A stretch of DNA of 63,911 bases, filler included, from Stramenopiles sp. TOSAG23-6 (Eukaryota): NCBI GenBank assembly GCA_900128565.1. It is 3 parts of 3 records of this genome, joined end to end, with 100 filler letters (N's around TTAATTAATTAA, not from the genome) between each part and the next. Parts side by side here need not be neighbours in the genome. Positions count along the whole stretch, not along the records: positions 1 to 24,425 come from LT636004.1; positions 24,526 to 48,920 come from LT636005.1; positions 49,021 to 63,911 come from LT636132.1. One strand, given 5' to 3'. Each line of letters begins with the position of its first letter. Position 1 is the stretch's first letter. The translations under genes and the position numbers were made by a program. Shown piece by piece: positions 24,364-49,073 of this stretch. The notes below the pieces were generated by a model. The model worked only from the letters and a program-made list of their open reading frames with translations. It was not told where the DNA came from and searched no databases.

Positions 24364-24425
24364 GTACATTTTCATTATGAATTTCAAATTTATTTTTTTT
24401 TCGTACGAAATTTTGTACCTAACAA
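24364..24425 (+). other. 5' part of a family intron, truncated by the contig end
   Basis: GTACATTTTCATTATGAATTTCAAATTTA(T9)CGTACGAAATTTTGTACCTAAC. Confidence 0.85.
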
Positions 24426-24525
24426 NNNNNNNNNNNNNNNNNNNNNNNNNNNNNNNNNNNNNNNNNNNNTTAATTAATTAANNNNNNNNNNNNNNNNNNN
24501 NNNNNNNNNNNNNNNNNNNNNNNNN
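24426..24525. other. artificial scaffold linker (N44-TTAATTAATTAA-N44)
   Basis: A six-frame stop 12-mer embedded in Ns; identical structure at 48921-49020. Confidence 0.97.
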
Positions 24526-24756
24526 AGCCTTAATGATTCGCGCACCAGCCCGACGTTCCTCCTCTTCCGCAGCCGCCGCATCTGCCTCCCGAGCCTTCGC
24601 ATTACCACCACAAGCCCAACAACCACAACCACCACACTTCTTGCGACGACGACGACGACCAGCCGGGGTAATTCGAAAAGTTCTCGTAGTAGCTGCTTCA
24701 ATATGACATACACATGAAGATGCAAGTAACATTGTACATAGTATAAACTGAATCAT
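24526..24756 (-). CDS. 3'-partial ORF with a signal peptide and an RRRRRKKCGGCGCWAC motif (mirror copy 48690-48920)
   Basis: Hydrophobic N-terminus; the ORF runs into the gap. Confidence 0.45.
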
Positions 24757-24946
24757 TTTAATGTATGCATGGGCTTTGATCGACCTTTGATGTAGGGCCG
24801 AACCCCCGAAGTCATGCAGCCGCCTGGCCTAGTACCGGGTACCTGACGTCTTTTCGGCAGTCAAAGTGGAGCTCAATTTTTTTTTTTTTTAAGTATGTAT
24901 CTTTCGTTCCTCGATATGATAATATAATTGCCGCAAGGCATGCCTA

Positions 24947-26221
24947 ATGATGTCAAAACCTGCAAAGAAAAAGCAAAAAAAGGCCAGGAAAAAGTTTGGC
25001 AATCTAAAGAAGAAGGATAAATCAGAATTTCATGCTGATGTGAATCAATTATGTGGTAATACAAGAAAGAAGTTCAAGGGTAGCAGATGGCCTACACTTG
25101 AAGACTGGATTGCACTCGCTAAGTCGTCCAAGTGGAAGAACAATACAACATTCTGGTTAGATACTACTACAGATGAACAGGCTGGACGTCAAATTGAAAA
25201 ACATGCTCTTAAATATATTATCGGAAAGAAGCTTGTAAAAAAATCCTTTAACCGATATTTTAGGGACCGGAGAGAAAGGTTGTTAAATGGGAATGAAAAT
25301 AAACTTGATATAAAAGATGCTTTGACAATAGTATCTGTGCCTTTTTATTCATTAAAGGAATTAATCAGAAAAAAACGTATGGAGCACATTAATGGTCAGA
25401 AGCAGGGAGGTGAAGAGTTTGGATGGGGACTGATACCGTGTCCAAATTGTAAGGAAAGGTCTATACCTCGCCATCTCAACGCAACAAAATGTAGGACTCT
25501 AGGTTGTGTAGATAAAGTAGCTGCACAAAATCAGAAAAAGAAGACAAATAAAGTAAACTTAGAACTAGCTCTAAATCAAGCTCGTAGAAAGCAATGTGCA
25601 TGTGGGTGTTGGGCAATGCTGAAAACAGGTGAAACAAAGCCAAACCCTACTGATTTTGAATTTGGTTCATATGCACAACGTTGCAAACTCCACGCATCTT
25701 TGGATATCAGTGATCTTGAAATTGGTGTCAAATCTGTTGGATGTGACGGTTGTCAACGAAACTGTGATAAATGTAGGGAATGTGGGTGCTTTGATGGGAT
25801 CGGCGTGACGCGTGTTTGTTTTGCTTGCACAAAAAAAGGTGAAACTGGTCAACCAAGGTTTCCAGAAACCTTTAACACTTATAAAATATGCATTCCATGC
25901 ACTAAAAGGAAGAAAGAACGACGGCGGAAATCATATGTAAATGCAAGAGAGAATCTTCAATCCGAGAATAGAAACTCTGGTGGTTGGGCAGATCCAAGTG
26001 GTACGTTAACATTCAATATGATAGATTATTGGTACCGTGTATTACTTCATGAACACTTTAAGTTTCATTACTTTAAATATTATACTTCAAGCAATACTGT
26101 AAAGCATCAGCACATTGCTATGCTTAAAGCTAGGACCGGTTGGACAAGAACTTCTCATTCGCTTGCTTCAGTCTACAAAAGTTGGCTTAAGTCAAAAATG
26201 TATCTGAAGTGCCGTATCTGA
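24947..26221 (+). CDS. Cys-rich basic protein (multiple CxxC), accessory ORF of the element
   Basis: CPNC, CACGC, CDGC..CDKCRECGC, CFAC, CIPC; Lys-rich NLS-like N-terminus. Confidence 0.75.
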   Translation: MMSKPAKKKQKKARKKFGNLKKKDKSEFHADVNQLCGNTRKKFKGSRWPTLEDWIALAKSSKWKNNTTFWLDTTTDEQAGRQIEKHALKYIIGKKLVKKSFNRYFRDRRERLLNGNENKLDIKDALTIVSVPFYSLKELIRKKRMEHINGQKQGGEEFGWGLIPCPNCKERSIPRHLNATKCRTLGCVDKVAAQNQKKKTNKVNLELALNQARRKQCACGCWAMLKTGETKPNPTDFEFGSYAQRCKLHASLDISDLEIGVKSVGCDGCQRNCDKCRECGCFDGIGVTRVCFACTKKGETGQPRFPETFNTYKICIPCTKRKKERRRKSYVNARENLQSENRNSGGWADPSGTLTFNMIDYWYRVLLHEHFKFHYFKYYTSSNTVKHQHIAMLKARTGWTRTSHSLASVYKSWLKSKMYLKCRI

Positions 26222-26276
26222 AGGAGAAACTGCCGCCCAGTAAGTAATAATACAAAAGATTTCTTTATAGAGCATA

Positions 26277-26341
26277 AGATCCGTTGAACTTAAACGACAG
26301 TTACGAAACTTACGAAACTGTCGTTTAAGTTCAACGGATCT
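26277..26341. repeat. perfect 26-bp inverted repeat (hairpin, 13-nt loop)
   Basis: AGATCCGTTGAACTTAAACGACAGTT (26277-26302) pairs with AACTGTCGTTTAAGTTCAACGGATCT (26316-26341). Confidence 0.95.
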
Positions 26342-26356
26342 CTTGTAAAAGTGAAT

Positions 26357-26455
26357 TACATTGTAAATGTAGCAAACATTGCAAATGCAGCAAATGTAGC
26401 AAACATTGCAAACGTAGCAAATGTAGCAAACATTGCAAATGTAGCAAATGTTACA
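26357..26455. repeat. 9-bp minisatellite (AATGTAGCA / AACATTGCA units)
   Basis: About 11 units visible directly. Confidence 0.9.
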
Positions 26456-26518
26456 TAAAAATTAACAAATTGAGAAATGTAATAAAAAATATNTTTTTTT
26501 CAAATTTTTATATAAATA

Positions 26519-29500
26519 TTACTTGCTATTATACATGCAATGTCTCTTCTGTACCTTTCCAAGTTTAGAGTCCTTCTTCATTTTGGGGCACGGGTTATGC
26601 GGTAGCCCCAGTTCATCTATCCATGAGCCGTTTTCATCCAGCCATGTAAGAAGATTATGCTTCTCATTACATTTTGAACAAACCTTTGAGCAACGTTGAC
26701 ACTCATAAGTATACCATTTACCCGTACCAGTAGCAAGCTTATAGTCCCCGGAATCTTGCAACATTTGCTCCGGCCTTGTCTTTTCCCATGCTTGTATCTC
26801 GCTCAAAATTCTACTTTCTTGATGTTTCTTTGCTTCTTTCATTACATCATGTGTAGGATTTTCTGCCGCCAAGATAATAATGGGGTCAACTATACTTTGA
26901 CATTGAAATGCATTTCGAGCTGCTTCTGACTCAAGACTATCTCTAGTATTCACTTCATTACTGCACTTTGCGGTGTACTCGCCAATTGAACCCATATAGC
27001 ATAAACCATCATGGATTGTCTTTGCATTTTCAGTATTATCCAATACTATCTTTACATGTGCAGCAACGGATAGATTTGACATATTCACCTCATTTGCTTT
27101 CAGTGTTACAAATCTATTCTGATGAGATTCTTTCATTCCAACTGTTAATGCATGTGCAAACTGAAAGATAAGACATGTACTGTCACTATTACCACGACCT
27201 GTTGAATTCACTACTTTGCTACTTACAGCAGATATATACATAAATGGTATGTCATAACGCCATTCACAACCGCCACTATATCTTTTAGCTCTAATTCTGA
27301 TGCATTTGCAAGTCTTTCCATAAATAAGCTTCATTTTCACAGTATCTCCAGAGGTACGTTCGAATCTTGATGGTATTGTGCGGCCATTTATATGTTTCTT
27401 CTCTTCATAATTTCCTCCAATATCAAAACGTTGTATTTCGAATTCTTCAGTGGTAGGTGCACCTTCTTGTTGGGTAACATCTTCACCGTCATCTTCAATA
27501 TCATCATCAGATTTATCTCCATTATCTACAAATGATCCCCAATGATGTGGTGTATCAAAGACTTCACTGGTGCTAGAATCAATTTCATTTTTAATTTCAT
27601 TTTTAACTGTTTTATCATCAAGTGCTTCATCTAGCTTTCCATGGAATGCACCAGTCCTCCTCGCCATCTTTTCAAATGTCTTTAGGTGCAGGAGCTCAAG
27701 CATATTTTCCCGTTGAGTATTGTAATCTCTACTACGGCCACCGCCTCGGCATACTTCTGTTTTAACTATAGAATTACGGAAAGAGTGATGCTGCTCTACA
27801 GGTTTTTCACTAAGCATTAGCGGTGCCAATCCTGCTTCAGAAAAACATGCTTCATCAACAACCTCAACAAGATGAAATATTCCACCTCCACCTTTTGGTG
27901 TGTTCAATTCATTACCAAAAAGGTGTGCTGCAGTTCGCTGAAATGAAAGCATACATGGTCGCACCCATGGCCGGCACTTGATATACTCCTGTGTAGTAGC
28001 ACAATTAAGTATTGTTCTATATTGAGCAAATCTTGAATGCAAATGTTTCAGTCCTTTAGCTTCGTAACTATTTGGATCAAAGAAACAGAACTGGAAATTG
28101 CCATCTTCACCTTTATAAAGAGAGTTGTCATATTTTTTCACAAGCCGTAAACACTCTGGATGATTGCATTGAAATAGTTTTTCATATGGCTGTGCCATTA
28201 AATCTTGAAGTTTTCCCGAGTCAGCTCCTGTTACTTTCATTTTCCCTTTTGTACCATATTCTTGAAGCCCAAACGGCGTTTGAAGATGATAAATTATGTG
28301 GTGCTTCCAAGGATCAAGTATACCTCGTAATTTCATTAAACGGCATTCAACGGCAAGATACTTCTTTGAAAGCGTTGAAAAGTGGTGCCAGATACCACTT
28401 GAAATTCTTTTTGGATCTGTGATATTCATACCAGGTACATATAGTTTGCAGGGAAACGCAATTCCTGTGGATTGTCTCAATTCAGTCACAGCAGCAGCTC
28501 CCTTAGCTATTGCTTCTTTAGCAAGCAAATCATGTACATCACCTGTTCTTCCAATAAATGCACCGAACCGTTGCACCCCATTTGCATTTAGAAAATGGCG
28601 TAATTCTCGTGTCATTGGTCCTGAAAATGAAATATCTTGAGCACTTCCAACACTAGTAAAGCCGAATATGGCTCGAGCACCAGCACCATCAGGACCCCAG
28701 ATAATATGCTCAACAGCAATAGTATGCTTCAAACCTTCAATGTGTAGACCATTCTTCAAAATAGAAATATATTGCGTCCACCATGACTCGCCACCAGGAG
28801 GCCCATCACAAGCAGCTTGTTCAAATTCGATACGATGATCATTTCCAGTGAACAATACCATAGGTAGTAGATTCATTGTTCTGTTTTGTTCTGCTGCATC
28901 GCCAATATGAACTTTGACTGCAATGAGAGTATTGTGCATTGTTTGTCTATAGTTGCCAAGTATTGAATTATCTGAAACAACATTGGCGTCTACAAAAACA
29001 CTTAGATACAACTTGGCACCTTCAACAATATCCATAACATTGCCATCAGCATCACACTGAAATAAATGAGATGCTGTTGTTTTGGAGCGTTGCAACAGAT
29101 AATCTGAAAGCGCTGTGCTAACTTTCACCTGTGATATACTCATCCCATGGGGATACTCATTGGATGCACCAACTGACCATGTCGTCAGCTTTATATTTGG
29201 TAGTGTGTCTTTTAGTATTTGTACCAATTCAGCAGTGGTTTTTGTTATCTTTGAGATAAAGCCAGATAAAATACGTGCCATCTCAAATTTGGGATTTACT
29301 ATTCTTTCAAATTGTCTTGCACTAGATCGTGATTGCAATTGAGCCGTTACTATGGCATTTGAAAACGCAGTAACAGCTCCAGCCATTCCTAAACGACCAA
29401 GTATATTATCAACTAATGGCCCACACCTTTCCTTGAGTGAATGTGTAACTTCAGCTCCACGCTCACCTCGCATGAAGCAATCAATTACAGTCATCAAAAC

Positions 29501-30748
29501 CTGCGGAGGGATCAAGTCTTTGTCTTCTCCAAAAGTTCCAATTATTATTGGAACCATATCTGAAGTTTTAATGATTTCCTCCAATAGTTGTGTATCCTTT
29601 AGTTTATCTGGTGTTGGATAATCTACTTTATCTTTTGCCGCAATAGGTGATGCTGGCTGTATTGGGTCGCCAACTGTGGGTGATATATTCCCTCCTAATG
29701 CAGAAATAGTAGCGGCTATAATACGTGATCTACATTTAATATTGAACAATGGTCTGTCATAAGCAAGCTGGCGAATATTTTGTTGAATTGTCTCATCAAT
29801 ACAATCAAATCTTTGCAACCATTCATCACGTTCTGCATCCTTAACATATAAATTGATTGCCGTTTCAAGTGATGATCGATCATGTAAGACGATATTCAGA
29901 GTCCTTAGTATATCTTTACGACCGAAACCAAAATATCCTTCAATCATTTTTCGGTAAACTTTGAACGCAAAATCAGCACGTGGTCCCTCTAAACGACAAC
30001 CAGACTTCCAATTTGAAACCTCTGCGAGTGTATGATATCTCCTGCAAATATCAAAAGATTCTTTGAGCGCCACATTAATCGCTACCTTGCAAATTTGAGA
30101 CGGACTCCAAAGAACCTCTCTTTGTCCAGTGCTTGATTCCCAATGTTTCCTTTTATTGGAAATCTTTTTCAAACATGTGCCTGAAACCGTGCATTTGTGG
30201 CCATCTGTACACTCTACTTGATACATTCGCTCACTTTGTGGTGTAGTTGATGATATTACTTTCAGTACCCGGCACTCCTCCCAATAAACATCATTGTCTA
30301 TGTTTGTACTCATGGAATTCCGCGTCCGTAGCTCCGACTCAAAGCCACAATACACTTCGTGATCAAACTTGTTTGTCGCCTCTGTTGCAGTGCACAATAC
30401 TTTAGTTTTACACCCTGATATTATATAATTGTCTATGATATCTGTAACGGTCCGTTTCATTGAATCTTTCCGCACTTTTACGTCCTTAAGCTCTGGGGTA
30501 GTCTTGAACCACTTCAATACATCCGCTGTAACCGCATCTATCCAAATATCTCGTCCAAAACGAATACTACTACTTTTAGATTTGAATTCAAACGATCTAA
30601 GTATTCTTGTTGTTAAATTTCGAGCCATTCTTGGTTGCTTCACATTTTGATGGATCCTATTCGACGAAAACGGCCTCTGCCGTTGAAGTCTATCATCGTG
30701 GTGCGACAACGTTAATTCTGACACTTCCGAGTCCTTACTTTCAGACAT
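26519..30748 (-). CDS. putative RAG1/Transib/Chapaev-like DDE transposase, ~1410 aa
   Basis: Ordered motifs LSVFVD(594), LPMVLFTGND, WGPD(694)GAGARAIFG, GIWH(795)H, IFH(966), LSEKPVE(992)QHH; N-terminal Tudor-like segment; C-terminal Cys/His cluster. Residue numbers follow the 1416-aa ORF. Confidence 0.65.
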   Translation of the reverse strand: MSESKDSEVSELTLSHHDDRLQRQRPFSSNRIHQNVKQPRMARNLTTRILRSFEFKSKSSSIRFGRDIWIDAVTADVLKWFKTTPELKDVKVRKDSMKRTVTDIIDNYIISGCKTKVLCTATEATNKFDHEVYCGFESELRTRNSMSTNIDNDVYWEECRVLKVISSTTPQSERMYQVECTDGHKCTVSGTCLKKISNKRKHWESSTGQREVLWSPSQICKVAINVALKESFDICRRYHTLAEVSNWKSGCRLEGPRADFAFKVYRKMIEGYFGFGRKDILRTLNIVLHDRSSLETAINLYVKDAERDEWLQRFDCIDETIQQNIRQLAYDRPLFNIKCRSRIIAATISALGGNISPTVGDPIQPASPIAAKDKVDYPTPDKLKDTQLLEEIIKTSDMVPIIIGTFGEDKDLIPPQVLMTVIDCFMRGERGAEVTHSLKERCGPLVDNILGRLGMAGAVTAFSNAIVTAQLQSRSSARQFERIVNPKFEMARILSGFISKITKTTAELVQILKDTLPNIKLTTWSVGASNEYPHGMSISQVKVSTALSDYLLQRSKTTASHLFQCDADGNVMDIVEGAKLYLSVFVDANVVSDNSILGNYRQTMHNTLIAVKVHIGDAAEQNRTMNLLPMVLFTGNDHRIEFEQAACDGPPGGESWWTQYISILKNGLHIEGLKHTIAVEHIIWGPDGAGARAIFGFTSVGSAQDISFSGPMTRELRHFLNANGVQRFGAFIGRTGDVHDLLAKEAIAKGAAAVTELRQSTGIAFPCKLYVPGMNITDPKRISSGIWHHFSTLSKKYLAVECRLMKLRGILDPWKHHIIYHLQTPFGLQEYGTKGKMKVTGADSGKLQDLMAQPYEKLFQCNHPECLRLVKKYDNSLYKGEDGNFQFCFFDPNSYEAKGLKHLHSRFAQYRTILNCATTQEYIKCRPWVRPCMLSFQRTAAHLFGNELNTPKGGGGIFHLVEVVDEACFSEAGLAPLMLSEKPVEQHHSFRNSIVKTEVCRGGGRSRDYNTQRENMLELLHLKTFEKMARRTGAFHGKLDEALDDKTVKNEIKNEIDSSTSEVFDTPHHWGSFVDNGDKSDDDIEDDGEDVTQQEGAPTTEEFEIQRFDIGGNYEEKKHINGRTIPSRFERTSGDTVKMKLIYGKTCKCIRIRAKRYSGGCEWRYDIPFMYISAVSSKVVNSTGRGNSDSTCLIFQFAHALTVGMKESHQNRFVTLKANEVNMSNLSVAAHVKIVLDNTENAKTIHDGLCYMGSIGEYTAKCSNEVNTRDSLESEAARNAFQCQSIVDPIIILAAENPTHDVMKEAKKHQESRILSEIQAWEKTRPEQMLQDSGDYKLATGTGKWYTYECQRCSKVCSKCNEKHNLLTWLDENGSWIDELGLPHNPCPKMKKDSKLGKVQKRHCMYNSK

Positions 30749-31205
30749 TTTCCGCCAATGTTTACACACTTAACCACTCTCAGATAGTCAATTACTTACT
30801 GAATGATTTTAATTGTTTATTTTTAGTTTATCCCTTTCATCTATTCTTCATGAACAGGCAGAGACAAACCGGTAGGGTGTATGAATATGTTTTCGTAGTA
30901 GTAGGCCAAAAAAACTTTAATTTGCTACTCCACATAGGATGCCGATTTGGCCGTATACGGGCCAGGCGGCTGCATGACTTCTATAGTATACGGTATAATT
31001 TTTTTTTTTTTTACACTTTCACTGACTTGTTTCTACTGTTAAATTAATAAATTTCATGGCGGGCAATAAAATCTTTGTGAAAATTGTGAAGCGTCTGTCA
31101 TTGTCAATTCAGCCGTTCATCAATTTTAAATAAAAATTCATAGTTAAATGGTACAAATGGCACGTACCTGTTGTAAATGAAAAATAACTGGCCAAAATTA
31201 AATGC

Positions 31206-31782
31206 TTAATACTACATTAAAAACTCAAGACACAACAACCTAAAGAAGTAGCATTAAACTACATCATATAACAATACAAATACACACCCTTAGGCTTATA
31301 AACTACATTATACAATGTACTTTATTCTTAAATGAAAAAATTGTTGAAAAATATTTGTTACTTAATTGGTACGGAGTGGCACAAACCTGAAAAAAAAAGC
31401 GATCTTTTGTCCTTACCTATTCCTTTACGGAAAAGACTTTAGTCGTTCCAACCCGTTACCGGGTTCGAATAAACCTGGTGTGTACTCACACAATATATAT
31501 TACCGGCTCATATTTAAAAAGTTAATACTACATTAACAACTCAAAACACAACAACCTAAAGAAGTAGCATTAAACTACATCATATAACAATACAAATACA
31601 CACCCTTAGGCTTATAAACTACATTATACAATGTACTTTATTCTTAAATGAAAAAATTGTTGAAAAATATTTGTTACTTAATTGGTACGGAGTGGCACAA
31701 ACCTGAAAAAAAAAGCGATCTTTTGTCCTTACCTATTCCTTTACGGAAAAGACTTTAGTCGTTCCAACCCGTTACCGGGTTC
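31206..31782. repeat. pair of 261-bp near-identical direct repeats (31206-31466 and 31522-31782) with a 55-bp spacer
   Basis: Both copies run from TTAATACTACATTAA to AACCCGTTACCGGGTTC; two substitutions seen near the 5' end. Confidence 0.92.
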
Positions 31783-31975
31783 CAACCCCACAGAAATATC
31801 TTTTTGTTTAAGATTTTGTACCAAGGTTTTGTACCAAAATTTATAAAATTTCAGGGCCTTCCTTGTCACGACGTCGACGGCGGCACAGACGGTTACTGTA
31901 GCTAATGTTTACAAAGTGGTACAAACAGTAATATCTATATTTTCATATACTTTAGAAGCTTACCAACAGATAAAA

Positions 31976-32665
31976 ATGAAGATTGTGAACGATACATGTA
32001 ACCCTTTTAAATGGTTGATCATTGCGATTGCAGTTATGTTTTTTTTTGTGGGGCTTTTCTTCCTCTTTTTTTTTGTACTAGACACAACCTATTTTGATGA
32101 CGATTGCCTCGATTACGATACAGTTGCTCATTGCCATTTTTTTAAGTATGGTTATCTATACTTTTTCGGAGCTGGGATTATTACGCTTCTTATGTTGGGG
32201 TGTATTAAAGGGAATCATTACTTTGCAGATTTCAACGAACAATCAGTCACATTCGCATATGGTGGTGTCTTTACAAATACAACTATTCGAGAAGTTAATT
32301 TTCTAGATATTGAGCAACTTGGTTGGGCTATGCGGCATACAAGTTCCGGGATCAATATTTTAAATCCTCGTAAATCGATTGTTCTAAAAATACGCGGCGA
32401 AGTCCATACTTTTCAATTTCCGCCCTCCGTGTATTTTGTAAGTCTTGCTTTTCTGAATAAGGTATATAATGCACTGTCAGAAAGGTTAGTACAGGGACAA
32501 GTAGTGCAGGGACATGTTGTTCAGCCACAAAGTGTTTCTGATGTTAAACCTGTTATCGTTAATCCTGTAGCTGTTAGAGCTGTTGTTGCTAAAGCTGTTG
32601 TTGTTAATCCTGTAACAAAAGCACCCAAATCTTCAAAAGTAGATTTGAATCAGCCAAACAATTAA
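31976..32665 (+). CDS. hypothetical protein with two TM segments and a Val-rich tail
   Basis: Two hydrophobic helices; first ATG at MKIVND. Confidence 0.6.
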   Translation: MKIVNDTCNPFKWLIIAIAVMFFFVGLFFLFFFVLDTTYFDDDCLDYDTVAHCHFFKYGYLYFFGAGIITLLMLGCIKGNHYFADFNEQSVTFAYGGVFTNTTIREVNFLDIEQLGWAMRHTSSGINILNPRKSIVLKIRGEVHTFQFPPSVYFVSLAFLNKVYNALSERLVQGQVVQGHVVQPQSVSDVKPVIVNPVAVRAVVAKAVVVNPVTKAPKSSKVDLNQPNN

Positions 32666-32959
32666 CGAGTTACACCATTGTACATTGCTTCACAGAACCA
32701 ACTCGTGTAATCTGCTATGTTTCTTACTAATTAGGAGTTTAAAAAATGCCTGATATAATTTTATAAATTTTATGCTACTAGGACTAGCTAGATAAAAAAT
32801 CTTTATGTAAACATCACCTGTTTTTTTTGAAATTAATTTTAATTAATTTTTTTAAAAAATAGAGAGTCAGTGCGAGTGCGCGGCATCCGCGATCCCTCCG
32901 TCCCTTTGTTTTTATAGTTGTTTAACGCTTTAAAATAGGTACCCTGTTTATTTCACAAA

Positions 32960-39316: not shown

Positions 39317-40486
39317 CTATGTTTCTGAAAGGGCAAGTAATAAATTTAAACCGTCTTGCTTTTCTTTTTTGATTTCCCTGCGCCTTTTCTGAGTTGGCAA
39401 ATTTTGACTACGTGTTTTTTTTATCAATTTCTTAGACACAACGGCTGTATGCGAGACTCTATATGATGCCTTTTTCCTTCGTTTGGAACGCCTCAATCTT
39501 GGTCCTTCCGGTTCTTCTGGTCGTGTTGGTCCTCGTTGTAGTTTGGGTTCATCATCACCATCTTTTGAAATATCAACTTTTTCTAAATATGCTTTCACTT
39601 CACTTGGAATAAAATGACCAAAATATGTGTTGATACCTTTGCCGTTTTCAAAAAAACAACTATTAAAATGTTCTACCCCTTGATGATATGAAAGTTGATA
39701 CTCATGCATATCTTTTGATTCGGTATTGAAAAATAAAATGACTCTTTCCGGAGCTGTAATGTTCTGCTTCATTGCGGCTAGAACACACGAATACGCTTCT
39801 AACCAACCGTATCGAATGCCTCCACCTTTTTCGTCTAAGCTCTTTGGAATATCGGTCTCGTTTAAACATCTTTCAAAACCTGGATCTTCAACGTAAATAT
39901 CTCTCTTAAGATCGTGACCTTTTGGACCATCGTAATGCGTCTTCGAGTCACCTGCCATAGTATCTGAAGGATAGATACCGTTAGATATGTTTGAGAACGT
40001 TTCATAGTTGGTTTGTTTCAAGTATTGCAGTAAGTTTGAAGGCATCCAACTCTCTCTTATAAGGTCTTTGATACGATAACTGCCTCCTGCCGTAACAATT
40101 CCTACTGCAAAGTCTTTTTTCAAACACTCATCCACAATTTTTCTGTTTCTATCTCTTTCATTTTTCTTTTGTTTTGCTGTCATCGTCTTGTCTAAATCTA
40201 ACTGATGAAGCACACCATCGATTCTGAATAAGCATATACCTTTTCTTGGTTTACCCGGTGTATACATCGGTAAAGCTTCCCTAGAGCTTTCTCCCGCTTC
40301 AGAAGTTATGACTTGTGGTGCTAGTTGTTGAGTCGTAACTAGATTGGACTCAAGTGGATAGTTATAGTCAAGTGGAACGGTCCACAGGGGAGCTGTCCTC
40401 TTCGTCCTTTTCCTAGCGGTAGAAGAGGAAACTATAGTGGTGCATTGCACAAATGCAATCAAAAAGAAAACTCCGTAAAAACCCAT
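39317..40486 (-). CDS. HAD-like secreted protein, mirror copy
   Basis: Reverse complement of 32960-34129. Confidence 0.6.
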   Translation of the reverse strand: MGFYGVFFLIAFVQCTTIVSSSTARKRTKRTAPLWTVPLDYNYPLESNLVTTQQLAPQVITSEAGESSREALPMYTPGKPRKGICLFRIDGVLHQLDLDKTMTAKQKKNERDRNRKIVDECLKKDFAVGIVTAGGSYRIKDLIRESWMPSNLLQYLKQTNYETFSNISNGIYPSDTMAGDSKTHYDGPKGHDLKRDIYVEDPGFERCLNETDIPKSLDEKGGGIRYGWLEAYSCVLAAMKQNITAPERVILFFNTESKDMHEYQLSYHQGVEHFNSCFFENGKGINTYFGHFIPSEVKAYLEKVDISKDGDDEPKLQRGPTRPEEPEGPRLRRSKRRKKASYRVSHTAVVSKKLIKKTRSQNLPTQKRRREIKKEKQDGLNLLLALSET

Positions 40487-40780
40487 TTTGTGAAATAAAC
40501 AGGGTACCTATTTTAAAGCGTTAAACAACTATAAAAACAAAGGGACGGAGGGATCGCGGATGCCGCGCACTCGCACTGACTCTCTATTTTTTAAAAAAAT
40601 TAATTAAAATTAATTTCAAAAAAAACAGGTGATGTTTACATAAAGATTTTTTATCTAGCTAGTCCTAGTAGCATAAAATTTATAAAATTATATCAGGCAT
40701 TTTTTAAACTCCTAATTAGTAAGAAACATAGCAGATTACACGAGTTGGTTCTGTGAAGCAATGTACAATGGTGTAACTCG

Positions 40781-41470
40781 TTAATTGTTTGGCTGATTCA
40801 AATCTACTTTTGAAGATTTGGGTGCTTTTGTTACAGGATTAACAACAACAGCTTTAGCAACAACAGCTCTAACAGCTACAGGATTAACGATAACAGGTTT
40901 AACATCAGAAACACTTTGTGGCTGAACAACATGTCCCTGCACTACTTGTCCCTGTACTAACCTTTCTGACAGTGCATTATATACCTTATTCAGAAAAGCA
41001 AGACTTACAAAATACACGGAGGGCGGAAATTGAAAAGTATGGACTTCGCCGCGTATTTTTAGAACAATCGATTTACGAGGATTTAAAATATTGATCCCGG
41101 AACTTGTATGCCGCATAGCCCAACCAAGTTGCTCAATATCTAGAAAATTAACTTCTCGAATAGTTGTATTTGTAAAGACACCACCATATGCGAATGTGAC
41201 TGATTGTTCGTTGAAATCTGCAAAGTAATGATTCCCTTTAATACACCCCAACATAAGAAGCGTAATAATCCCAGCTCCGAAAAAGTATAGATAACCATAC
41301 TTAAAAAAATGGCAATGAGCAACTGTATCGTAATCGAGGCAATCGTCATCAAAATAGGTTGTGTCTAGTACAAAAAAAAAGAGGAAGAAAAGCCCCACAA
41401 AAAAAAACATAACTGCAATCGCAATGATCAACCATTTAAAAGGGTTACATGTATCGTTCACAATCTTCAT
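40781..41470 (-). CDS. 2-TM hypothetical protein, mirror copy
   Basis: Reverse complement of 31976-32665. Confidence 0.6.
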   Translation of the reverse strand: MKIVNDTCNPFKWLIIAIAVMFFFVGLFFLFFFVLDTTYFDDDCLDYDTVAHCHFFKYGYLYFFGAGIITLLMLGCIKGNHYFADFNEQSVTFAYGGVFTNTTIREVNFLDIEQLGWAMRHTSSGINILNPRKSIVLKIRGEVHTFQFPPSVYFVSLAFLNKVYNALSERLVQGQVVQGHVVQPQSVSDVKPVIVNPVAVRAVVAKAVVVNPVTKAPKSSKVDLNQPNN

Positions 41471-42697
41471 TTTTATCTGTTGGTAAGCTTCTAAAGTATA
41501 TGAAAATATAGATATTACTGTTTGTACCACTTTGTAAACATTAGCTACAGTAACCGTCTGTGCCGCCGTCGACGTCGTGACAAGGAAGGCCCTGAAATTT
41601 TATAAATTTTGGTACAAAACCTTGGTACAAAATCTTAAACAAAAAGATATTTCTGTGGGGTTGGAACCCGGTAACGGGTTGGAACGACTAAAGTCTTTTC
41701 CGTAAAGGAATAGGTAAGGACAAAAGATCGCTTTTTTTTTCAGGTTTGTGCCACTCCGTACCAATTAAGTAACAAATATTTTTCAACAATTTTTTCATTT
41801 AAGAATAAAGTACATTGTATAATGTAGTTTATAAGCCTAAGGGTGTGTATTTGTATTGTTATATGATGTAGTTTAATGCTACTTCTTTAGGTTGTTGTGT
41901 TTTGAGTTGTTAATGTAGTATTAACTTTTTAAATATGAGCCGGTAATATATATTGTGTGAGTACACACCAGGTTTATTCGAACCCGGTAACGGGTTGGAA
42001 CGACTAAAGTCTTTTCCGTAAAGGAATAGGTAAGGACAAAAGATCGCTTTTTTTTTCAGGTTTGTGCCACTCCGTACCAATTAAGTAACAAATATTTTTC
42101 AACAATTTTTTCATTTAAGAATAAAGTACATTGTATAATGTAGTTTATAAGCCTAAGGGTGTGTATTTGTATTGTTATATGATGTAGTTTAATGCTACTT
42201 CTTTAGGTTGTTGTGTCTTGAGTTTTTAATGTAGTATTAAGCATTTAATTTTGGCCAGTTATTTTTCATTTACAACAGGTACGTGCCATTTGTACCATTT
42301 AACTATGAATTTTTATTTAAAATTGATGAACGGCTGAATTGACAATGACAGACGCTTCACAATTTTCACAAAGATTTTATTGCCCGCCATGAAATTTATT
42401 AATTTAACAGTAGAAACAAGTCAGTGAAAGTGTAAAAAAAAAAAAAATTATACCGTATACTATAGAAGTCATGCAGCCGCCTGGCCCGTATACGGCCAAA
42501 TCGGCATCCTATGTGGAGTAGCAAATTAAAGTTTTTTTGGCCTACTACTACGAAAACATATTCATACACCCTACCGGTTTGTCTCTGCCTGTTCATGAAG
42601 AATAGATGAAAGGGATAAACTAAAAATAAACAATTAAAATCATTCAGTAAGTAATTGACTATCTGAGAGTGGTTAAGTGTGTAAACATTGGCGGAAA

Positions 42698-45600
42698 ATG
42701 TCTGAAAGTAAGGACTCGGAAGTGTCAGAATTAACGTTGTCGCACCACGATGATAGACTTCAACGGCAGAGGCCGTTTTCGTCGAATAGGATCCATCAAA
42801 ATGTGAAGCAACCAAGAATGGCTCGAAATTTAACAACAAGAATACTTAGATCGTTTGAATTCAAATCTAAAAGTAGTAGTATTCGTTTTGGACGAGATAT
42901 TTGGATAGATGCGGTTACAGCGGATGTATTGAAGTGGTTCAAGACTACCCCAGAGCTTAAGGACGTAAAAGTGCGGAAAGATTCAATGAAACGGACCGTT
43001 ACAGATATCATAGACAATTATATAATATCAGGGTGTAAAACTAAAGTATTGTGCACTGCAACAGAGGCGACAAACAAGTTTGATCACGAAGTGTATTGTG
43101 GCTTTGAGTCGGAGCTACGGACGCGGAATTCCATGAGTACAAACATAGACAATGATGTTTATTGGGAGGAGTGCCGGGTACTGAAAGTAATATCATCAAC
43201 TACACCACAAAGTGAGCGAATGTATCAAGTAGAGTGTACAGATGGCCACAAATGCACGGTTTCAGGCACATGTTTGAAAAAGATTTCCAATAAAAGGAAA
43301 CATTGGGAATCAAGCACTGGACAAAGAGAGGTTCTTTGGAGTCCGTCTCAAATTTGCAAGGTAGCGATTAATGTGGCGCTCAAAGAATCTTTTGATATTT
43401 GCAGGAGATATCATACACTCGCAGAGGTTTCAAATTGGAAGTCTGGTTGTCGTTTAGAGGGACCACGTGCTGATTTTGCGTTCAAAGTTTACCGAAAAAT
43501 GATTGAAGGATATTTTGGTTTCGGTCGTAAAGATATACTAAGGACTCTGAATATCGTCTTACATGATCGATCATCACTTGAAACGGCAATCAATTTATAT
43601 GTTAAGGATGCAGAACGTGATGAATGGTTGCAAAGATTTGATTGTATTGATGAGACAATTCAACAAAATATTCGCCAGCTTGCTTATGACAGACCATTGT
43701 TCAATATTAAATGTAGATCACGTATTATAGCCGCTACTATTTCTGCATTAGGAGGGAATATATCACCCACAGTTGGCGACCCAATACAGCCAGCATCACC
43801 TATTGCGGCAAAAGATAAAGTAGATTATCCAACACCAGATAAACTAAAGGATACACAACTATTGGAGGAAATCATTAAAACTTCAGATATGGTTCCAATA
43901 ATAATTGGAACTTTTGGAGAAGACAAAGACTTGATCCCTCCGCAGGTTTTGATGACTGTAATTGATTGCTTCATGCGAGGTGAGCGTGGAGCTGAAGTTA
44001 CACATTCACTCAAGGAAAGGTGTGGGCCATTAGTTGATAATATACTTGGTCGTTTAGGAATGGCTGGAGCTGTTACTGCGTTTTCAAATGCCATAGTAAC
44101 GGCTCAATTGCAATCACGATCTAGTGCAAGACAATTTGAAAGAATAGTAAATCCCAAATTTGAGATGGCACGTATTTTATCTGGCTTTATCTCAAAGATA
44201 ACAAAAACCACTGCTGAATTGGTACAAATACTAAAAGACACACTACCAAATATAAAGCTGACGACATGGTCAGTTGGTGCATCCAATGAGTATCCCCATG
44301 GGATGAGTATATCACAGGTGAAAGTTAGCACAGCGCTTTCAGATTATCTGTTGCAACGCTCCAAAACAACAGCATCTCATTTATTTCAGTGTGATGCTGA
44401 TGGCAATGTTATGGATATTGTTGAAGGTGCCAAGTTGTATCTAAGTGTTTTTGTAGACGCCAATGTTGTTTCAGATAATTCAATACTTGGCAACTATAGA
44501 CAAACAATGCACAATACTCTCATTGCAGTCAAAGTTCATATTGGCGATGCAGCAGAACAAAACAGAACAATGAATCTACTACCTATGGTATTGTTCACTG
44601 GAAATGATCATCGTATCGAATTTGAACAAGCTGCTTGTGATGGGCCTCCTGGTGGCGAGTCATGGTGGACGCAATATATTTCTATTTTGAAGAATGGTCT
44701 ACACATTGAAGGTTTGAAGCATACTATTGCTGTTGAGCATATTATCTGGGGTCCTGATGGTGCTGGTGCTCGAGCCATATTCGGCTTTACTAGTGTTGGA
44801 AGTGCTCAAGATATTTCATTTTCAGGACCAATGACACGAGAATTACGCCATTTTCTAAATGCAAATGGGGTGCAACGGTTCGGTGCATTTATTGGAAGAA
44901 CAGGTGATGTACATGATTTGCTTGCTAAAGAAGCAATAGCTAAGGGAGCTGCTGCTGTGACTGAATTGAGACAATCCACAGGAATTGCGTTTCCCTGCAA
45001 ACTATATGTACCTGGTATGAATATCACAGATCCAAAAAGAATTTCAAGTGGTATCTGGCACCACTTTTCAACGCTTTCAAAGAAGTATCTTGCCGTTGAA
45101 TGCCGTTTAATGAAATTACGAGGTATACTTGATCCTTGGAAGCACCACATAATTTATCATCTTCAAACGCCGTTTGGGCTTCAAGAATATGGTACAAAAG
45201 GGAAAATGAAAGTAACAGGAGCTGACTCGGGAAAACTTCAAGATTTAATGGCACAGCCATATGAAAAACTATTTCAATGCAATCATCCAGAGTGTTTACG
45301 GCTTGTGAAAAAATATGACAACTCTCTTTATAAAGGTGAAGATGGCAATTTCCAGTTCTGTTTCTTTGATCCAAATAGTTACGAAGCTAAAGGACTGAAA
45401 CATTTGCATTCAAGATTTGCTCAATATAGAACAATACTTAATTGTGCTACTACACAGGAGTATATCAAGTGCCGGCCATGGGTGCGACCATGTATGCTTT
45501 CATTTCAGCGAACTGCAGCACACCTTTTTGGTAATGAATTGAACACACCAAAAGGTGGAGGTGGAATATTTCATCTTGTTGAGGTTGTTGATGAAGCATG

Positions 45601-46927
45601 TTTTTCTGAAGCAGGATTGGCACCGCTAATGCTTAGTGAAAAACCTGTAGAGCAGCATCACTCTTTCCGTAATTCTATAGTTAAAACAGAAGTATGCCGA
45701 GGCGGTGGCCGTAGTAGAGATTACAATACTCAACGGGAAAATATGCTTGAGCTCCTGCACCTAAAGACATTTGAAAAGATGGCGAGGAGGACTGGTGCAT
45801 TCCATGGAAAGCTAGATGAAGCACTTGATGATAAAACAGTTAAAAATGAAATTAAAAATGAAATTGATTCTAGCACCAGTGAAGTCTTTGATACACCACA
45901 TCATTGGGGATCATTTGTAGATAATGGAGATAAATCTGATGATGATATTGAAGATGACGGTGAAGATGTTACCCAACAAGAAGGTGCACCTACCACTGAA
46001 GAATTCGAAATACAACGTTTTGATATTGGAGGAAATTATGAAGAGAAGAAACATATAAATGGCCGCACAATACCATCAAGATTCGAACGTACCTCTGGAG
46101 ATACTGTGAAAATGAAGCTTATTTATGGAAAGACTTGCAAATGCATCAGAATTAGAGCTAAAAGATATAGTGGCGGTTGTGAATGGCGTTATGACATACC
46201 ATTTATGTATATATCTGCTGTAAGTAGCAAAGTAGTGAATTCAACAGGTCGTGGTAATAGTGACAGTACATGTCTTATCTTTCAGTTTGCACATGCATTA
46301 ACAGTTGGAATGAAAGAATCTCATCAGAATAGATTTGTAACACTGAAAGCAAATGAGGTGAATATGTCAAATCTATCCGTTGCTGCACATGTAAAGATAG
46401 TATTGGATAATACTGAAAATGCAAAGACAATCCATGATGGTTTATGCTATATGGGTTCAATTGGCGAGTACACCGCAAAGTGCAGTAATGAAGTGAATAC
46501 TAGAGATAGTCTTGAGTCAGAAGCAGCTCGAAATGCATTTCAATGTCAAAGTATAGTTGACCCCATTATTATCTTGGCGGCAGAAAATCCTACACATGAT
46601 GTAATGAAAGAAGCAAAGAAACATCAAGAAAGTAGAATTTTGAGCGAGATACAAGCATGGGAAAAGACAAGGCCGGAGCAAATGTTGCAAGATTCCGGGG
46701 ACTATAAGCTTGCTACTGGTACGGGTAAATGGTATACTTATGAGTGTCAACGTTGCTCAAAGGTTTGTTCAAAATGTAATGAGAAGCATAATCTTCTTAC
46801 ATGGCTGGATGAAAACGGCTCATGGATAGATGAACTGGGGCTACCGCATAACCCGTGCCCCAAAATGAAGAAGGACTCTAAACTTGGAAAGGTACAGAAG
46901 AGACATTGCATGTATAATAGCAAGTAA
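42698..46927 (+). CDS. putative DDE transposase, mirror copy
   Basis: Reverse complement of 26519-30748. Confidence 0.65.
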   Translation: MSESKDSEVSELTLSHHDDRLQRQRPFSSNRIHQNVKQPRMARNLTTRILRSFEFKSKSSSIRFGRDIWIDAVTADVLKWFKTTPELKDVKVRKDSMKRTVTDIIDNYIISGCKTKVLCTATEATNKFDHEVYCGFESELRTRNSMSTNIDNDVYWEECRVLKVISSTTPQSERMYQVECTDGHKCTVSGTCLKKISNKRKHWESSTGQREVLWSPSQICKVAINVALKESFDICRRYHTLAEVSNWKSGCRLEGPRADFAFKVYRKMIEGYFGFGRKDILRTLNIVLHDRSSLETAINLYVKDAERDEWLQRFDCIDETIQQNIRQLAYDRPLFNIKCRSRIIAATISALGGNISPTVGDPIQPASPIAAKDKVDYPTPDKLKDTQLLEEIIKTSDMVPIIIGTFGEDKDLIPPQVLMTVIDCFMRGERGAEVTHSLKERCGPLVDNILGRLGMAGAVTAFSNAIVTAQLQSRSSARQFERIVNPKFEMARILSGFISKITKTTAELVQILKDTLPNIKLTTWSVGASNEYPHGMSISQVKVSTALSDYLLQRSKTTASHLFQCDADGNVMDIVEGAKLYLSVFVDANVVSDNSILGNYRQTMHNTLIAVKVHIGDAAEQNRTMNLLPMVLFTGNDHRIEFEQAACDGPPGGESWWTQYISILKNGLHIEGLKHTIAVEHIIWGPDGAGARAIFGFTSVGSAQDISFSGPMTRELRHFLNANGVQRFGAFIGRTGDVHDLLAKEAIAKGAAAVTELRQSTGIAFPCKLYVPGMNITDPKRISSGIWHHFSTLSKKYLAVECRLMKLRGILDPWKHHIIYHLQTPFGLQEYGTKGKMKVTGADSGKLQDLMAQPYEKLFQCNHPECLRLVKKYDNSLYKGEDGNFQFCFFDPNSYEAKGLKHLHSRFAQYRTILNCATTQEYIKCRPWVRPCMLSFQRTAAHLFGNELNTPKGGGGIFHLVEVVDEACFSEAGLAPLMLSEKPVEQHHSFRNSIVKTEVCRGGGRSRDYNTQRENMLELLHLKTFEKMARRTGAFHGKLDEALDDKTVKNEIKNEIDSSTSEVFDTPHHWGSFVDNGDKSDDDIEDDGEDVTQQEGAPTTEEFEIQRFDIGGNYEEKKHINGRTIPSRFERTSGDTVKMKLIYGKTCKCIRIRAKRYSGGCEWRYDIPFMYISAVSSKVVNSTGRGNSDSTCLIFQFAHALTVGMKESHQNRFVTLKANEVNMSNLSVAAHVKIVLDNTENAKTIHDGLCYMGSIGEYTAKCSNEVNTRDSLESEAARNAFQCQSIVDPIIILAAENPTHDVMKEAKKHQESRILSEIQAWEKTRPEQMLQDSGDYKLATGTGKWYTYECQRCSKVCSKCNEKHNLLTWLDENGSWIDELGLPHNPCPKMKKDSKLGKVQKRHCMYNSK

Positions 46928-47224
46928 TATTTATATAAAAATTTGAAAAAAANATATTTTTTATTACATTTCTCAATTTGTTAATTTTTATGTAACATTT
47001 GCTACATTTGCAATGTTTGCTACATTTGCTACGTTTGCAATGTTTGCTACATTTGCTGCATTTGCAATGTTTGCTACATTTACAATGTAATTCACTTTTA
47101 CAAGAGATCCGTTGAACTTAAACGACAGTTTCGTAAGTTTCGTAACTGTCGTTTAAGTTCAACGGATCTTATGCTCTATAAAGAAATCTTTTGTATTATT
47201 ACTTACTGGGCGGCAGTTTCTCCT

Positions 47225-48499
47225 TCAGATACGGCACTTCAGATACATTTTTGACTTAAGCCAACTTTTGTAGACTGAAGCAAGCGAATGAGAAGTTCTT
47301 GTCCAACCGGTCCTAGCTTTAAGCATAGCAATGTGCTGATGCTTTACAGTATTGCTTGAAGTATAATATTTAAAGTAATGAAACTTAAAGTGTTCATGAA
47401 GTAATACACGGTACCAATAATCTATCATATTGAATGTTAACGTACCACTTGGATCTGCCCAACCACCAGAGTTTCTATTCTCGGATTGAAGATTCTCTCT
47501 TGCATTTACATATGATTTCCGCCGTCGTTCTTTCTTCCTTTTAGTGCATGGAATGCATATTTTATAAGTGTTAAAGGTTTCTGGAAACCTTGGTTGACCA
47601 GTTTCACCTTTTTTTGTGCAAGCAAAACAAACACGCGTCACGCCGATCCCATCAAAGCACCCACATTCCCTACATTTATCACAGTTTCGTTGACAACCGT
47701 CACATCCAACAGATTTGACACCAATTTCAAGATCACTGATATCCAAAGATGCGTGGAGTTTGCAACGTTGTGCATATGAACCAAATTCAAAATCAGTAGG
47801 GTTTGGCTTTGTTTCACCTGTTTTCAGCATTGCCCAACACCCACATGCACATTGCTTTCTACGAGCTTGATTTAGAGCTAGTTCTAAGTTTACTTTATTT
47901 GTCTTCTTTTTCTGATTTTGTGCAGCTACTTTATCTACACAACCTAGAGTCCTACATTTTGTTGCGTTGAGATGGCGAGGTATAGACCTTTCCTTACAAT
48001 TTGGACACGGTATCAGTCCCCATCCAAACTCTTCACCTCCCTGCTTCTGACCATTAATGTGCTCCATACGTTTTTTTCTGATTAATTCCTTTAATGAATA
48101 AAAAGGCACAGATACTATTGTCAAAGCATCTTTTATATCAAGTTTATTTTCATTCCCATTTAACAACCTTTCTCTCCGGTCCCTAAAATATCGGTTAAAG
48201 GATTTTTTTACAAGCTTCTTTCCGATAATATATTTAAGAGCATGTTTTTCAATTTGACGTCCAGCCTGTTCATCTGTAGTAGTATCTAACCAGAATGTTG
48301 TATTGTTCTTCCACTTGGACGACTTAGCGAGTGCAATCCAGTCTTCAAGTGTAGGCCATCTGCTACCCTTGAACTTCTTTCTTGTATTACCACATAATTG
48401 ATTCACATCAGCATGAAATTCTGATTTATCCTTCTTCTTTAGATTGCCAAACTTTTTCCTGGCCTTTTTTTGCTTTTTCTTTGCAGGTTTTGACATCAT
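47225..48499 (-). CDS. Cys-rich accessory protein, mirror copy
   Basis: Reverse complement of 24947-26221. Confidence 0.75.
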   Translation of the reverse strand: MMSKPAKKKQKKARKKFGNLKKKDKSEFHADVNQLCGNTRKKFKGSRWPTLEDWIALAKSSKWKNNTTFWLDTTTDEQAGRQIEKHALKYIIGKKLVKKSFNRYFRDRRERLLNGNENKLDIKDALTIVSVPFYSLKELIRKKRMEHINGQKQGGEEFGWGLIPCPNCKERSIPRHLNATKCRTLGCVDKVAAQNQKKKTNKVNLELALNQARRKQCACGCWAMLKTGETKPNPTDFEFGSYAQRCKLHASLDISDLEIGVKSVGCDGCQRNCDKCRECGCFDGIGVTRVCFACTKKGETGQPRFPETFNTYKICIPCTKRKKERRRKSYVNARENLQSENRNSGGWADPSGTLTFNMIDYWYRVLLHEHFKFHYFKYYTSSNTVKHQHIAMLKARTGWTRTSHSLASVYKSWLKSKMYLKCRI

Positions 48500-48920
48500 T
48501 AGGCATGCCTTGCGGCAATTATATTATCATATCGAGGAACGAAAGATACATACTTAAAAAAAAAAAAAATTGAGCTCCACTTTGACTGCCGAAAAGACGT
48601 CAGGTACCCGGTACTAGGCCAGGCGGCTGCATGACTTCGGGGGTTCGGCCCTACATCAAAGGTCGATCAAAGCCCATGCATACATTAAAATGATTCAGTT
48701 TATACTATGTACAATGTTACTTGCATCTTCATGTGTATGTCATATTGAAGCAGCTACTACGAGAACTTTTCGAATTACCCCGGCTGGTCGTCGTCGTCGT
48801 CGCAAGAAGTGTGGTGGTTGTGGTTGTTGGGCTTGTGGTGGTAATGCGAAGGCTCGGGAGGCAGATGCGGCGGCTGCGGAAGAGGAGGAACGTCGGGCTG
48901 GTGCGCGAATCATTAAGGCT

Positions 48921-49020
48921 NNNNNNNNNNNNNNNNNNNNNNNNNNNNNNNNNNNNNNNNNNNNTTAATTAATTAANNNNNNNNNNNNNNNNNNNNNNNN
49001 NNNNNNNNNNNNNNNNNNNN
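48921..49020. other. artificial scaffold linker
   Basis: N44-TTAATTAATTAA-N44. Confidence 0.97.
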
Positions 49021-49073
49021 ACAAAATTTCGTACGAAAAAAAAATAAATTTGAAATTCATAATGAAAACGTAC
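49021..49073 (-). other. 5' part of a family intron, truncated by the contig end
   Basis: GAT|GTACGTTTTCATTATGAATTTCAAATTTA(T9)CGTACGAAATTTTGT. Confidence 0.85.

Follow-up and report, generated by a model that had tools for sequence, protein, structure and literature searches.

How do near-identical introns come to lie in unrelated genes, and how would such introns be cut out when most of them appear not to end in AG? The question is raised by a 63,911-nucleotide (nt) stretch of DNA, hereafter the window, from Stramenopiles sp. TOSAG23-6 (assembly GCA_900128565.1), which joins three scaffolds: LT636004.1 (positions 1-24425), LT636005.1 (24526-48920) and LT636132.1 (49021-63911), with linkers that read N44, TTAATTAATTAA and N44. 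An earlier reading of the sequence (the original prediction) had proposed a recently active family of introners. As described in PMC9860276, these are near-identical introns in unrelated genes whose similarity ends at the intron borders; they occur in tens to thousands of copies, most often in single-celled marine eukaryotes, and either bring splice sites with them or recruit them. Our answer, to which we assign a probability of roughly 0.7, is that the window holds an introner-type family, that is, a short, non-coding, AT-rich and self-contained intron that has multiplied in the genes of a MAST-3-type marine stramenopile. Three properties support it: near-identical introns in unrelated genes, similarity that ends at the intron borders, and high copy number.

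The two closest copies lie in a protein kinase gene and in a GrpE gene. The kinase intron (24364-24425, plus strand, phase 2) is cut by the end of the first scaffold and follows an exon at 23897-24363 (+) with a Pfam Pkinase match of 5.9e-17, while the GrpE intron (49021-49073, minus strand, phase 0) is cut by the start of the third and follows an exon at 49074-49760 (-) with a Pfam GrpE match of 3.8e-31. Both genes are broken in the middle of their domain, with the matches covering positions 2-89 of 263 of the Pkinase profile and 3-133 of 165 of the GrpE profile. As had been claimed, 24364-24416 (+) and 49073-49021 (-) agree at 52 of 53 positions, with intron base 5 (A versus G) as the sole difference, and the linker positions confirm that they belong to different scaffolds. 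The two copies are identical over 48 consecutive bases that comprise spacer, T-run and palindrome, and their upstream flanks are unrelated, differing from position -1 outward (GA versus AT).

The core shared by these introns, TTCRTACGAAATTTTGTACCTAA, recurs at 5589-5611 (-), 22621-22643 (-) and 24400-24422 (+) with at most three mismatches. These three matches compare with 0.01 expected, and that number was reached in none of 100 shuffles. Cut copies of the core stand at the window start (1-21) and at the start of the third scaffold (49021-49038). Highly similar introns are thus found in non-homologous genes, the core being present also in a TPR gene, an LRR gene and two other genes. The sequence TTTCGTACGAAA is, as stated earlier, a perfect palindrome. 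The centre of this palindrome (in the core at 24397-24408, for example) repeats the donor-like GTACG on both strands. An nhmmer profile trained on the other five core copies, and on nothing else, recovered the degenerate copy announced at 673-767 (E=0.0053); pairwise identities among degenerate copies are 0.71-0.89, values without a shuffle control that we do not use as evidence. The start (1) and end (24425) of the first scaffold and the start of the third (49021) fall inside the element, and deriving the intron coordinates 673-767, 5520-5644 and 22579-22679 again gave the same values.

We searched for introns by scanning the window with the 5' and 3' motifs and by inspecting every break between open frames. 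This yielded ten intron loci, all of them inside genes and in sense orientation, with phases 0, 1 and 2 represented, and neither the scans nor the inspection found introns of any other type. Six of the ten carry the palindromic core. Besides the kinase and GrpE copies, these are the 3' part of an intron at 1-57 (+), the degenerate intron at 673-767 (+; GTTCGT...CACAATGAAT, phase 0), the intron of the TPR gene at 5520-5644 (-; GTACGT...ACCATACAT, phase 1) and that of the LRR gene at 22579-22679 (-; GTATGT...CACAACACAT, phase 0). The partial copy at 1-57 consists of core (1-24) and the 3' module GAAATATTTTTCCAAAATACTT, scores E=2.7e-11 as a training copy and is truncated where the scaffold starts inside the core; its upstream exon lies outside the window, and its 3' end was placed at 57 from the reading frame and from analogy (7 nt after YAY). 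A protein search with the first exon of the TPR gene gave no match among 92 candidates.

The remaining four introns share with the others only their ends, GTAYGTTTTCAT at the 5' side and ATATTTTTCACAATACAT at the 3' side. One of them, at 10708-10902 (-; GTACGTTTTCAT...TTCATATTACAT), lies in a HEAT-repeat gene, is 195 nt long and can be read through in frame. Two interrupt the CFAP300 gene (37720-39011, +; exons 37720-38318, 38458-38674 and 38799-39011), where homology fixes the borders: intron 1 at 38319-38457 (+; GTACGTTTCC...ATATTTTTCACTATACTG, with a mirror copy at 34989-35127, -) and intron 2 at 38675-38798 (+; GTATGTTTTTCAT...ATATTTTCACAATACAT, with a mirror copy at 34648-34771, -). The fourth, at 50666-50757 (+; GTACGTTTTCAT...TTTTCACCTACAAAT, phase 1), has the family ends and a TACCTAAC motif but no palindrome. 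The 5' module GTACGTTTTCAT, allowing one mismatch, has six matches in the window against 0.56 expected, five of them at intron starts and one in coding sequence. Regarding the claim that a dispersed element generated most introns here, it is borne out for the six loci with the core; the other four have the terminal motifs only.

Some observations concern individual loci. The 10708-10902 intron contains an internal unit of 36-37 nt three times, and CFAP300 intron 1 a unit of about 21 nt, CAAAAATTGAATTTTTTTTTT, also three times; parts of the element seem prone to such local duplication. Candidate starts at 60859 (-) and 45492 (+) were rejected as plain coding sequence. A frame switch at 59702-59802 (-), between two overlapping long frames of a coiled-coil-like gene, falls in an A9 run and is not an intron; it probably reflects a miscounted homopolymer or else a genuine frameshift.

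To judge the abundance of the family, Logan contigs of four runs were placed on 20 kb of the window (3101-23100) at 90% likeness. In the probable source run (X1), 2778 of 99,615 contigs fit this segment, of which about eight cover unique sequence; 346 fit at 99% identity or more, 1052 at 95-99% and 1380 at 90-95%. Summed depth reached 175,341 in the bin with the 5520-5644 intron and 37,531 in the bin with the 22579-22679 intron, compared with 21-38 in most other bins. An independent seawater metagenome (X3) behaved alike, with 2283 fitting contigs and depths of 10,585 and 2,215 in the same two bins versus around 8.6 elsewhere, so that summed depth in the family-intron bins is 250 to several thousand times the unique level. 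Contigs also piled up over the core-less intron at 10708-10902 (631.6 in bin 10438-11104 versus around 23 on either side). The repeat is thus not a low-copy one, thousands of contigs of both runs piling up on two family introns, as the original prediction had anticipated. We take these values, which are contig counts and summed depths and not copy numbers, to mean that the family has at least hundreds of copies, and probably thousands.

The same contigs also mark the borders of the repeated unit. Contigs of both runs start or end inside the element. The likeness of other copies to the 22579-22679 copy breaks off at 22579 in 6 contigs and at 22681 in 29, so similarity starts and stops within 2 nt of the intron borders. 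Two records of the seawater metagenome join both ends of the 22579-22679 intron to its own exons. Hence, this intron is not an amplification artefact. One could still argue that the family is a general dispersed repeat, such as a miniature inverted-repeat transposable element (MITE) with mostly intergenic copies, or a product of single-cell amplification or assembly, given that the middle scaffold is an exact palindrome, so that the assembly does contain artefacts, and that 64 kb were inspected. Against this, none of the ten copies in the window lies between genes, all ten are in sense orientation, and the independent metagenome holds the same intron ends beside the same exons. We consider either version extremely improbable.

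A further alternative is that nothing has moved: the spliceosome would demand long fixed signals, and the likeness of the introns would be kept by selection or by gene conversion. All ten introns do share the two end motifs, four of them share little else, and intron-poor genomes with rigid splicing signals exist, among them those of hemiascomycete yeasts, Giardia and Trichomonas. However, the 48 identical bases of spacer, T-run and palindrome in the kinase and GrpE copies are implausible as signals, thousands of contigs fit at 90% or more and 346 at 99% or more, assemblies break inside the element, and conversion among so many dispersed tracts of 100 nt is unlikely. This explanation is, in our opinion, very unlikely, and the introner-type family remains the one that we prefer.

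We also scanned other collections for the core. Contigs of JGI metagenomes gave one locus, on a contig of 1076 nt (L001), and viral contigs and prokaryote genomes gave no match. A shorter core pattern had four matches in prokaryote genomes, which were set aside as chance since their flanks are unrelated bacterial sequence. At positions 1-200 of L001 a family copy (GTATGT..., core exact) stands directly after an exon reading ...LNRGQQIKVLSMLYRKARTKN, which we take to resemble a motif of family-B DNA polymerases, and there is no AG before the ...GATTACAT end of this copy. The contig may be chimeric, as it has an adaptor-like end and a downstream part that looks unrelated.

The most unusual feature of the family is the apparent absence of AG at the 3' end. 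The coordinates given in the original prediction already imply introns without AG ends, a point that was not remarked there. With the conserved GT donor, the ends inferred for the seven complete introns are GT-AT in six and GT-TG in one, and in none of them AG. Protein continuity (CFAP300 homologues, LRR register, TPR spacing and reading frames) places the 3' cut after ...ACAT, which in seven of the eight 3' ends that are visible puts it 7 nt beyond the YAY of TTTTCAC. Two introns, 22579-22679 and 38675-38798, hold no AG anywhere, and the nearest AGs shift the frame in four of the seven complete introns when the donor is kept.

CFAP300 intron 2 is the clearest case. The Pfam profile is matched over positions 119-190 in exon B and over 195-246 from residue 4 of exon C, a homologue (P0121) reads ...FYKDLLTVHRSASTGGIEVAS straight through the junction, and the spacing across it is the same in 42 of the 45 homologues printed. 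The profile coordinates and the homologue spacing therefore place the intron at 38675-38798, GTATGT...CACAATACAT. There is no in-frame AG within 65 nt, and the first one would delete 22 residues. At CFAP300 intron 1, the spacing in homologues calls for a single residue, no more and no fewer, between MEN and IDGVT. A cut from GTACGT (38319) to ACTG (38457) gives V, which is present in 10 of 44 homologues, including the two closest; alternative cuts give C or G, found in none of the 44. If the in-frame AG at 38427 were used, the protein would gain 10 residues, which the 3' motif of the family itself encodes.

The LRR and TPR genes point to the same borders. In the former, the first AG downstream of the 22579-22679 intron (22557) shifts the frame, and the 21 bases from border 22579 to that AG encode NFIKLLP, which is the N-x-L-x-x-L-P motif of the next repeat; joined as ...LEIFNAEY|NFIKLLPETVG, the repeats are in register, with the conserved Asn spaced at 23, 24 and 23. 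In the latter, position 1 of the TPR_1 profile corresponds to residue 11 of exon 2, read from 5517, and residues 1-10 (SLVLQKDPTN) therefore finish the preceding repeat; use of the in-frame AG at 5499 would cost the repeat seven of them. A single long frame continues across the HEAT-gene intron and demands a length divisible by three, which is that of its 195 nt; the first downstream AG (10692) shifts this frame, which is open for more than 1100 codons. At 673-767, every AG within 58 nt downstream shifts the frame with the donor GTTCGT, and a GT-AG solution exists only with donors further upstream, at 642 or 660. At 50666-50757 an in-frame GT-AG alternative ends at 50778, so the 3' end is either 50757 or 50778.

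One could argue that the junctions are ordinary GT-AG ones, with upstream donors or downstream AGs and small insertions or deletions, and that the protein-based borders are wrong. The in-frame AGs at 5499, 38427 and 50778 would serve for 5520-5644, 38319-38457 and 50666-50757, and the donors at 642 or 660 for 673-767. Yet 38675-38798 and 22579-22679 lack an internal AG, their nearest in-frame AGs would delete 22 and 25 residues, with loss of the homologue-conserved RSASTGGIEVAS and of a whole LRR motif, and the first AG after 10708-10902 breaks the long HEAT frame. We therefore find ordinary GT-AG junctions very improbable. Other placements of the borders were tried as well. T precedes GT at all nine window starts other than the kinase intron, where A does, and AT precedes it at five of the nine. 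Borders shifted by two (AT...AC) fit three of the seven complete introns, not all, and leave the 5' dinucleotide variable; a shift by one (TG...CA) is possible wherever T precedes GT, that is, at each of those nine starts. Both were rejected as general solutions.

Several observations weigh against the introner-type family or against its GT-AT borders. Concerning descent, the four core-less introns are not significantly similar overall to the core family (E=2.5, 4.7, or unlisted), and their shared ends may be splicing signals instead of marks of common descent. Concerning mobility, the target-site duplication is ambiguous (AT on both sides in four of the seven complete copies, repeats of 1-5 nt overall), the terminal inverted repeat ATGTAT...ATACAT is only 4-6 nt long, no autonomous element was seen in the window, no joint that skips an intron is present among those listed in the contig placement, so that presence/absence polymorphism is not apparent there, and the copy number rests on short-contig counts and summed depths. 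Concerning the borders, three of the seven complete introns have an in-frame AG solution (5499, 38427 and 50778), borders can slide by 1-2 nt where the end of the upstream exon repeats the end of the intron, and TG-CA or AT-AC readings may hold for some copies. Finally, no splice joint for 5520-5644 or 22579-22679 is found among the contig joints listed for the probable source run, the seawater metagenome and the RNA data, where none of the listed RNA contigs reaches the exon borders of these two introns. In a polyA run (X7), depth in the two element bins is 5.77 and 0.53, compared with the 10,585 and 2,215 of the DNA run; such low values would fit removal from mature mRNA, although contig depths are unsuitable for this purpose and we do not count them as evidence. 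That the introns are removed would nonetheless be required by protein continuity, as judged from the genes themselves.

The data directly support the sequence family, its abundance, its place inside coding frames and the exon junctions called for by protein continuity, while removal by a spliceosome, mobility and mode of spread are what we infer. The element would be about 90-200 nt long, each copy being a complete intron. Its order would be a 5' splice site GTAYGT(TTTCAT), a T-run, the core in younger copies, a second T-run and the 3' module GAAATATTTTTCACAATACAT. The palindromic core of the younger copies, among which the kinase and GrpE introns appear to be the two youngest, reads TTTCGTACGAAATTTTGTACCTAAC, and its last part may act as a branch point, the sequence of which it resembles. 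Because the element would bring all its splicing signals, a sense copy in any phase would be removed from precursor messenger RNA, leaving the gene intact. Read as its reverse complement, the GT...AT unit becomes AT...AC, and the window holds no antisense copy. The 5' signal is an extended, yeast-like GT donor, with GTAYGT or GTTCGT at each of the 11 visible starts, and branch-like motifs similar to TACCTAAC or TACTAAAC, by comparison with the consensus sequences, stand 30-45 nt from the intron end. The 3' cut would then be made without AG, 7 nt after the YAY of TTTTCAC, giving mostly GT...AT introns.

As for the mode of spread, flanks that diverge from -1 and loose ends at 22579 and 22681 together suggest that the mobile unit is the intron itself to within 2 nt. 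Such a unit would suit spread by reverse splicing, or by direct insertion, no less than by cut-and-paste transposition. Given the short inverted ends and the AT on both sides of four of the seven complete copies, a small DNA transposon that targets AT may fit too. A TA target duplication was discarded, as it fits one of the three copies checked. We also rejected group II-like ends (GUGYG...AY), the introns being only 92-195 nt long, and DNA-level excision of the ciliate type, in favour of which there is nothing. Five folded introns gave z scores of 0.16, 0.13, 0.96, -0.13 and -0.21 against shuffles, none of them better than the shuffles, and on this basis an end-joining hairpin was rejected as well.

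Beyond the family itself, we propose, with odds that we put slightly below even, that most or all nuclear introns of this MAST-3-type lineage descend from one element and are spliced at GT...AT (some at GT...TG) by distance, that is, at TTTTCAC + 7 nt and not at AG, the spliceosome being either a modified major or an expanded minor-type one. A related explanation is that a minor-type (U12-like) or similarly changed spliceosome removes these introns, with the 3' cut chosen by distance and with mass gain from a mobile element as proposed for Physarum; it is compatible with the introner family, and we hold it to be unlikely. U12-like machinery uses a long conserved 5' motif and a conserved internal motif and sets the 3' cut by distance, so that the last two bases need not be AG. 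GT-AT and GT-TG, the end types of the present introns, are recognized as rare classes that belong mostly to U12-type introns (PMC1557818). In the family, conservation of the 5' motif extends over 12 nt, and the cut falls 7 nt after YAY in seven of eight visible 3' ends. However, the 5' site reads GTAYGTTT where RTATCCTT would be expected, and mismatches fall at +5, +6 and often +4; set against the consensus given in the Physarum preprint (10.1101/2020.10.12.336362), GTACGTTT or GTATGTTT differs from RTATCCTT at 2-3 of 8 positions, +5 and +6 included. The introns here are T-rich, whereas U12-type introns are described in PMC1557818 as having no pyrimidine tract. An Rfam scan of the window found no small nuclear RNA, nor any other Rfam match. 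As to the internal motif, GTACCTAAC, 30-37 nt upstream of the 3' end, matches TTCCTTRAC, the U12-type branch motif expected within about 45 nt of that end, at six of nine positions, or seven of nine with a gap, and TACCTAAC fits TACTAAC, the yeast-type U2 branch consensus, no worse than it fits TTCCTTAAC.

To contextualize the family, we compared it with described systems. According to PMC9860276, introners of Micromonas, Aureococcus and other marine protists are likewise short, non-coding, near-identical in unrelated genes and richer in AT than exons. Marine-protist introners there have GY-AG borders, with rare GC or GA 5' sites, while the family here appears to have no 3' AG; many show clear target-site duplications of 3-9 bp and inverted repeats, unlike the ambiguous duplication and 4-6 nt repeat found here. 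Fungal introner-like elements, according to the same paper, have neither target-site duplications nor inverted repeats and are thought to spread by reverse splicing. Like the family here, they are units that equal an intron with all its signals, lack a clear duplication and show a genic and sense bias, but their borders are canonical, in contrast to the non-AG ends of the present family, and they belong to another host group. They are also reported to fold stably, which was not seen in the five introns folded here.

The introner elements of Amoebophrya, according to PMC7789003, are also repeated intron families of a marine protist with non-GT-AG borders and short direct repeats that overlap the borders. 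They differ in having inverted repeats of 8-20 nt that form an exon-end-joining hairpin, whereas the introns here fold no better than shuffles (z from -0.21 to 0.96), and in having no fixed terminal dinucleotides, whereas here the 5' GT motif is constant at all visible starts and the 3' end is mostly AT. In Physarum polycephalum, U12-type introns were gained en masse from a suspected transposon, according to 10.1101/2020.10.12.336362. These introns resemble the family in their long conserved 5' motif and in the short inverted ends of the suspected transposon, and U12-type introns of Physarum and animals also have an internal motif whose distance from the 3' cut is fixed and tolerate GT-AT (see also PMC1557818). 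The signals themselves differ, being RTATCYTT with an internal motif 10-12 nt from the end in U12-type introns, and GTAYGTTT with TTTGA around 24 nt from the end here.

The apparent non-AG splicing makes the family a departure from described introners. Our literature search found no paper that links introners to MAST lineages, though this assembly, or one related to it, may figure in the supplementary species lists of PMC9860276 and PMC12130899, and it found no report of GT-AT introns in protists. Bursts of intron gain are at present best explained by introners, most known examples of which come from cultured algae, fungi and dinoflagellates, whereas the host here, an uncultured heterotrophic stramenopile of the sea, is known solely through single-cell and metagenome sequences. 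In the 64 kb of the window the family seems to account for every intron. Since the AG rule appears to be broken at the 3' border while a textbook 5' site is kept, the family lets the choice of a 3' site without AG be tested directly, and it raises the question of whether a mobile element spreads only after, or together with, a changed 3' splice rule. If our proposal is true, Amoebophrya and Physarum would be joined by a second, independent example of an element that spreads alongside changed 3' splice-site rules. On the practical side, gene prediction that admits GT-AG introns only will mis-call the genes that carry such introns.

Regarding the host, all three scaffolds have a G+C content of around 29-39% and are gene-dense, with long open frames on both strands. 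The Pfam families detected (protein kinase, GrpE, sphingolipid desaturase, CobW-type GTPase, LRR, TPR, HEAT, PAP2, zf-MYND and CFAP300) are all eukaryotic. The best named match of the desaturase, at 93% identity, is a EukProt protein labelled GSMAST32..., a label that we read, from this sequence match, as probably denoting a MAST-3-type stramenopile. Parts of the first 10 kb of the window are present in seawater metagenomes and metatranscriptomes.

Some features of the scaffolds lie outside the intron family. The middle scaffold is an exact palindrome, its arms 24526-36602 and 36844-48920 being reverse-complementary at 12077 of 12077 positions, even where bases are ambiguous; the arms are separated by 241 N, and their outer ends are G+C-rich. 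The palindrome is probably an amplification or assembly artefact. It carries the CFAP300 gene with two family-type introns and therefore belongs to the same organism. A tandem array with a period of 93 nt occupies 2317-3020, between the desaturase gene and the next gene, and comprises six overlapping 239-nt copies at 77-100% identity. In bin 4435-5101, which takes in the tail of one gene and the intergenic stretch that precedes the TPR gene and has no Rfam match, summed depth rises to 262.7 in the probable source run and 350.3 in the polyA RNA run, versus around 21 and 1-6 in the neighbouring bins. Finally, the CFAP300 (cilia- and flagella-associated protein 300) gene at 37720-39011 (+) is apparently intact, which points to an organism that makes a motile flagellum equipped with dynein arms.

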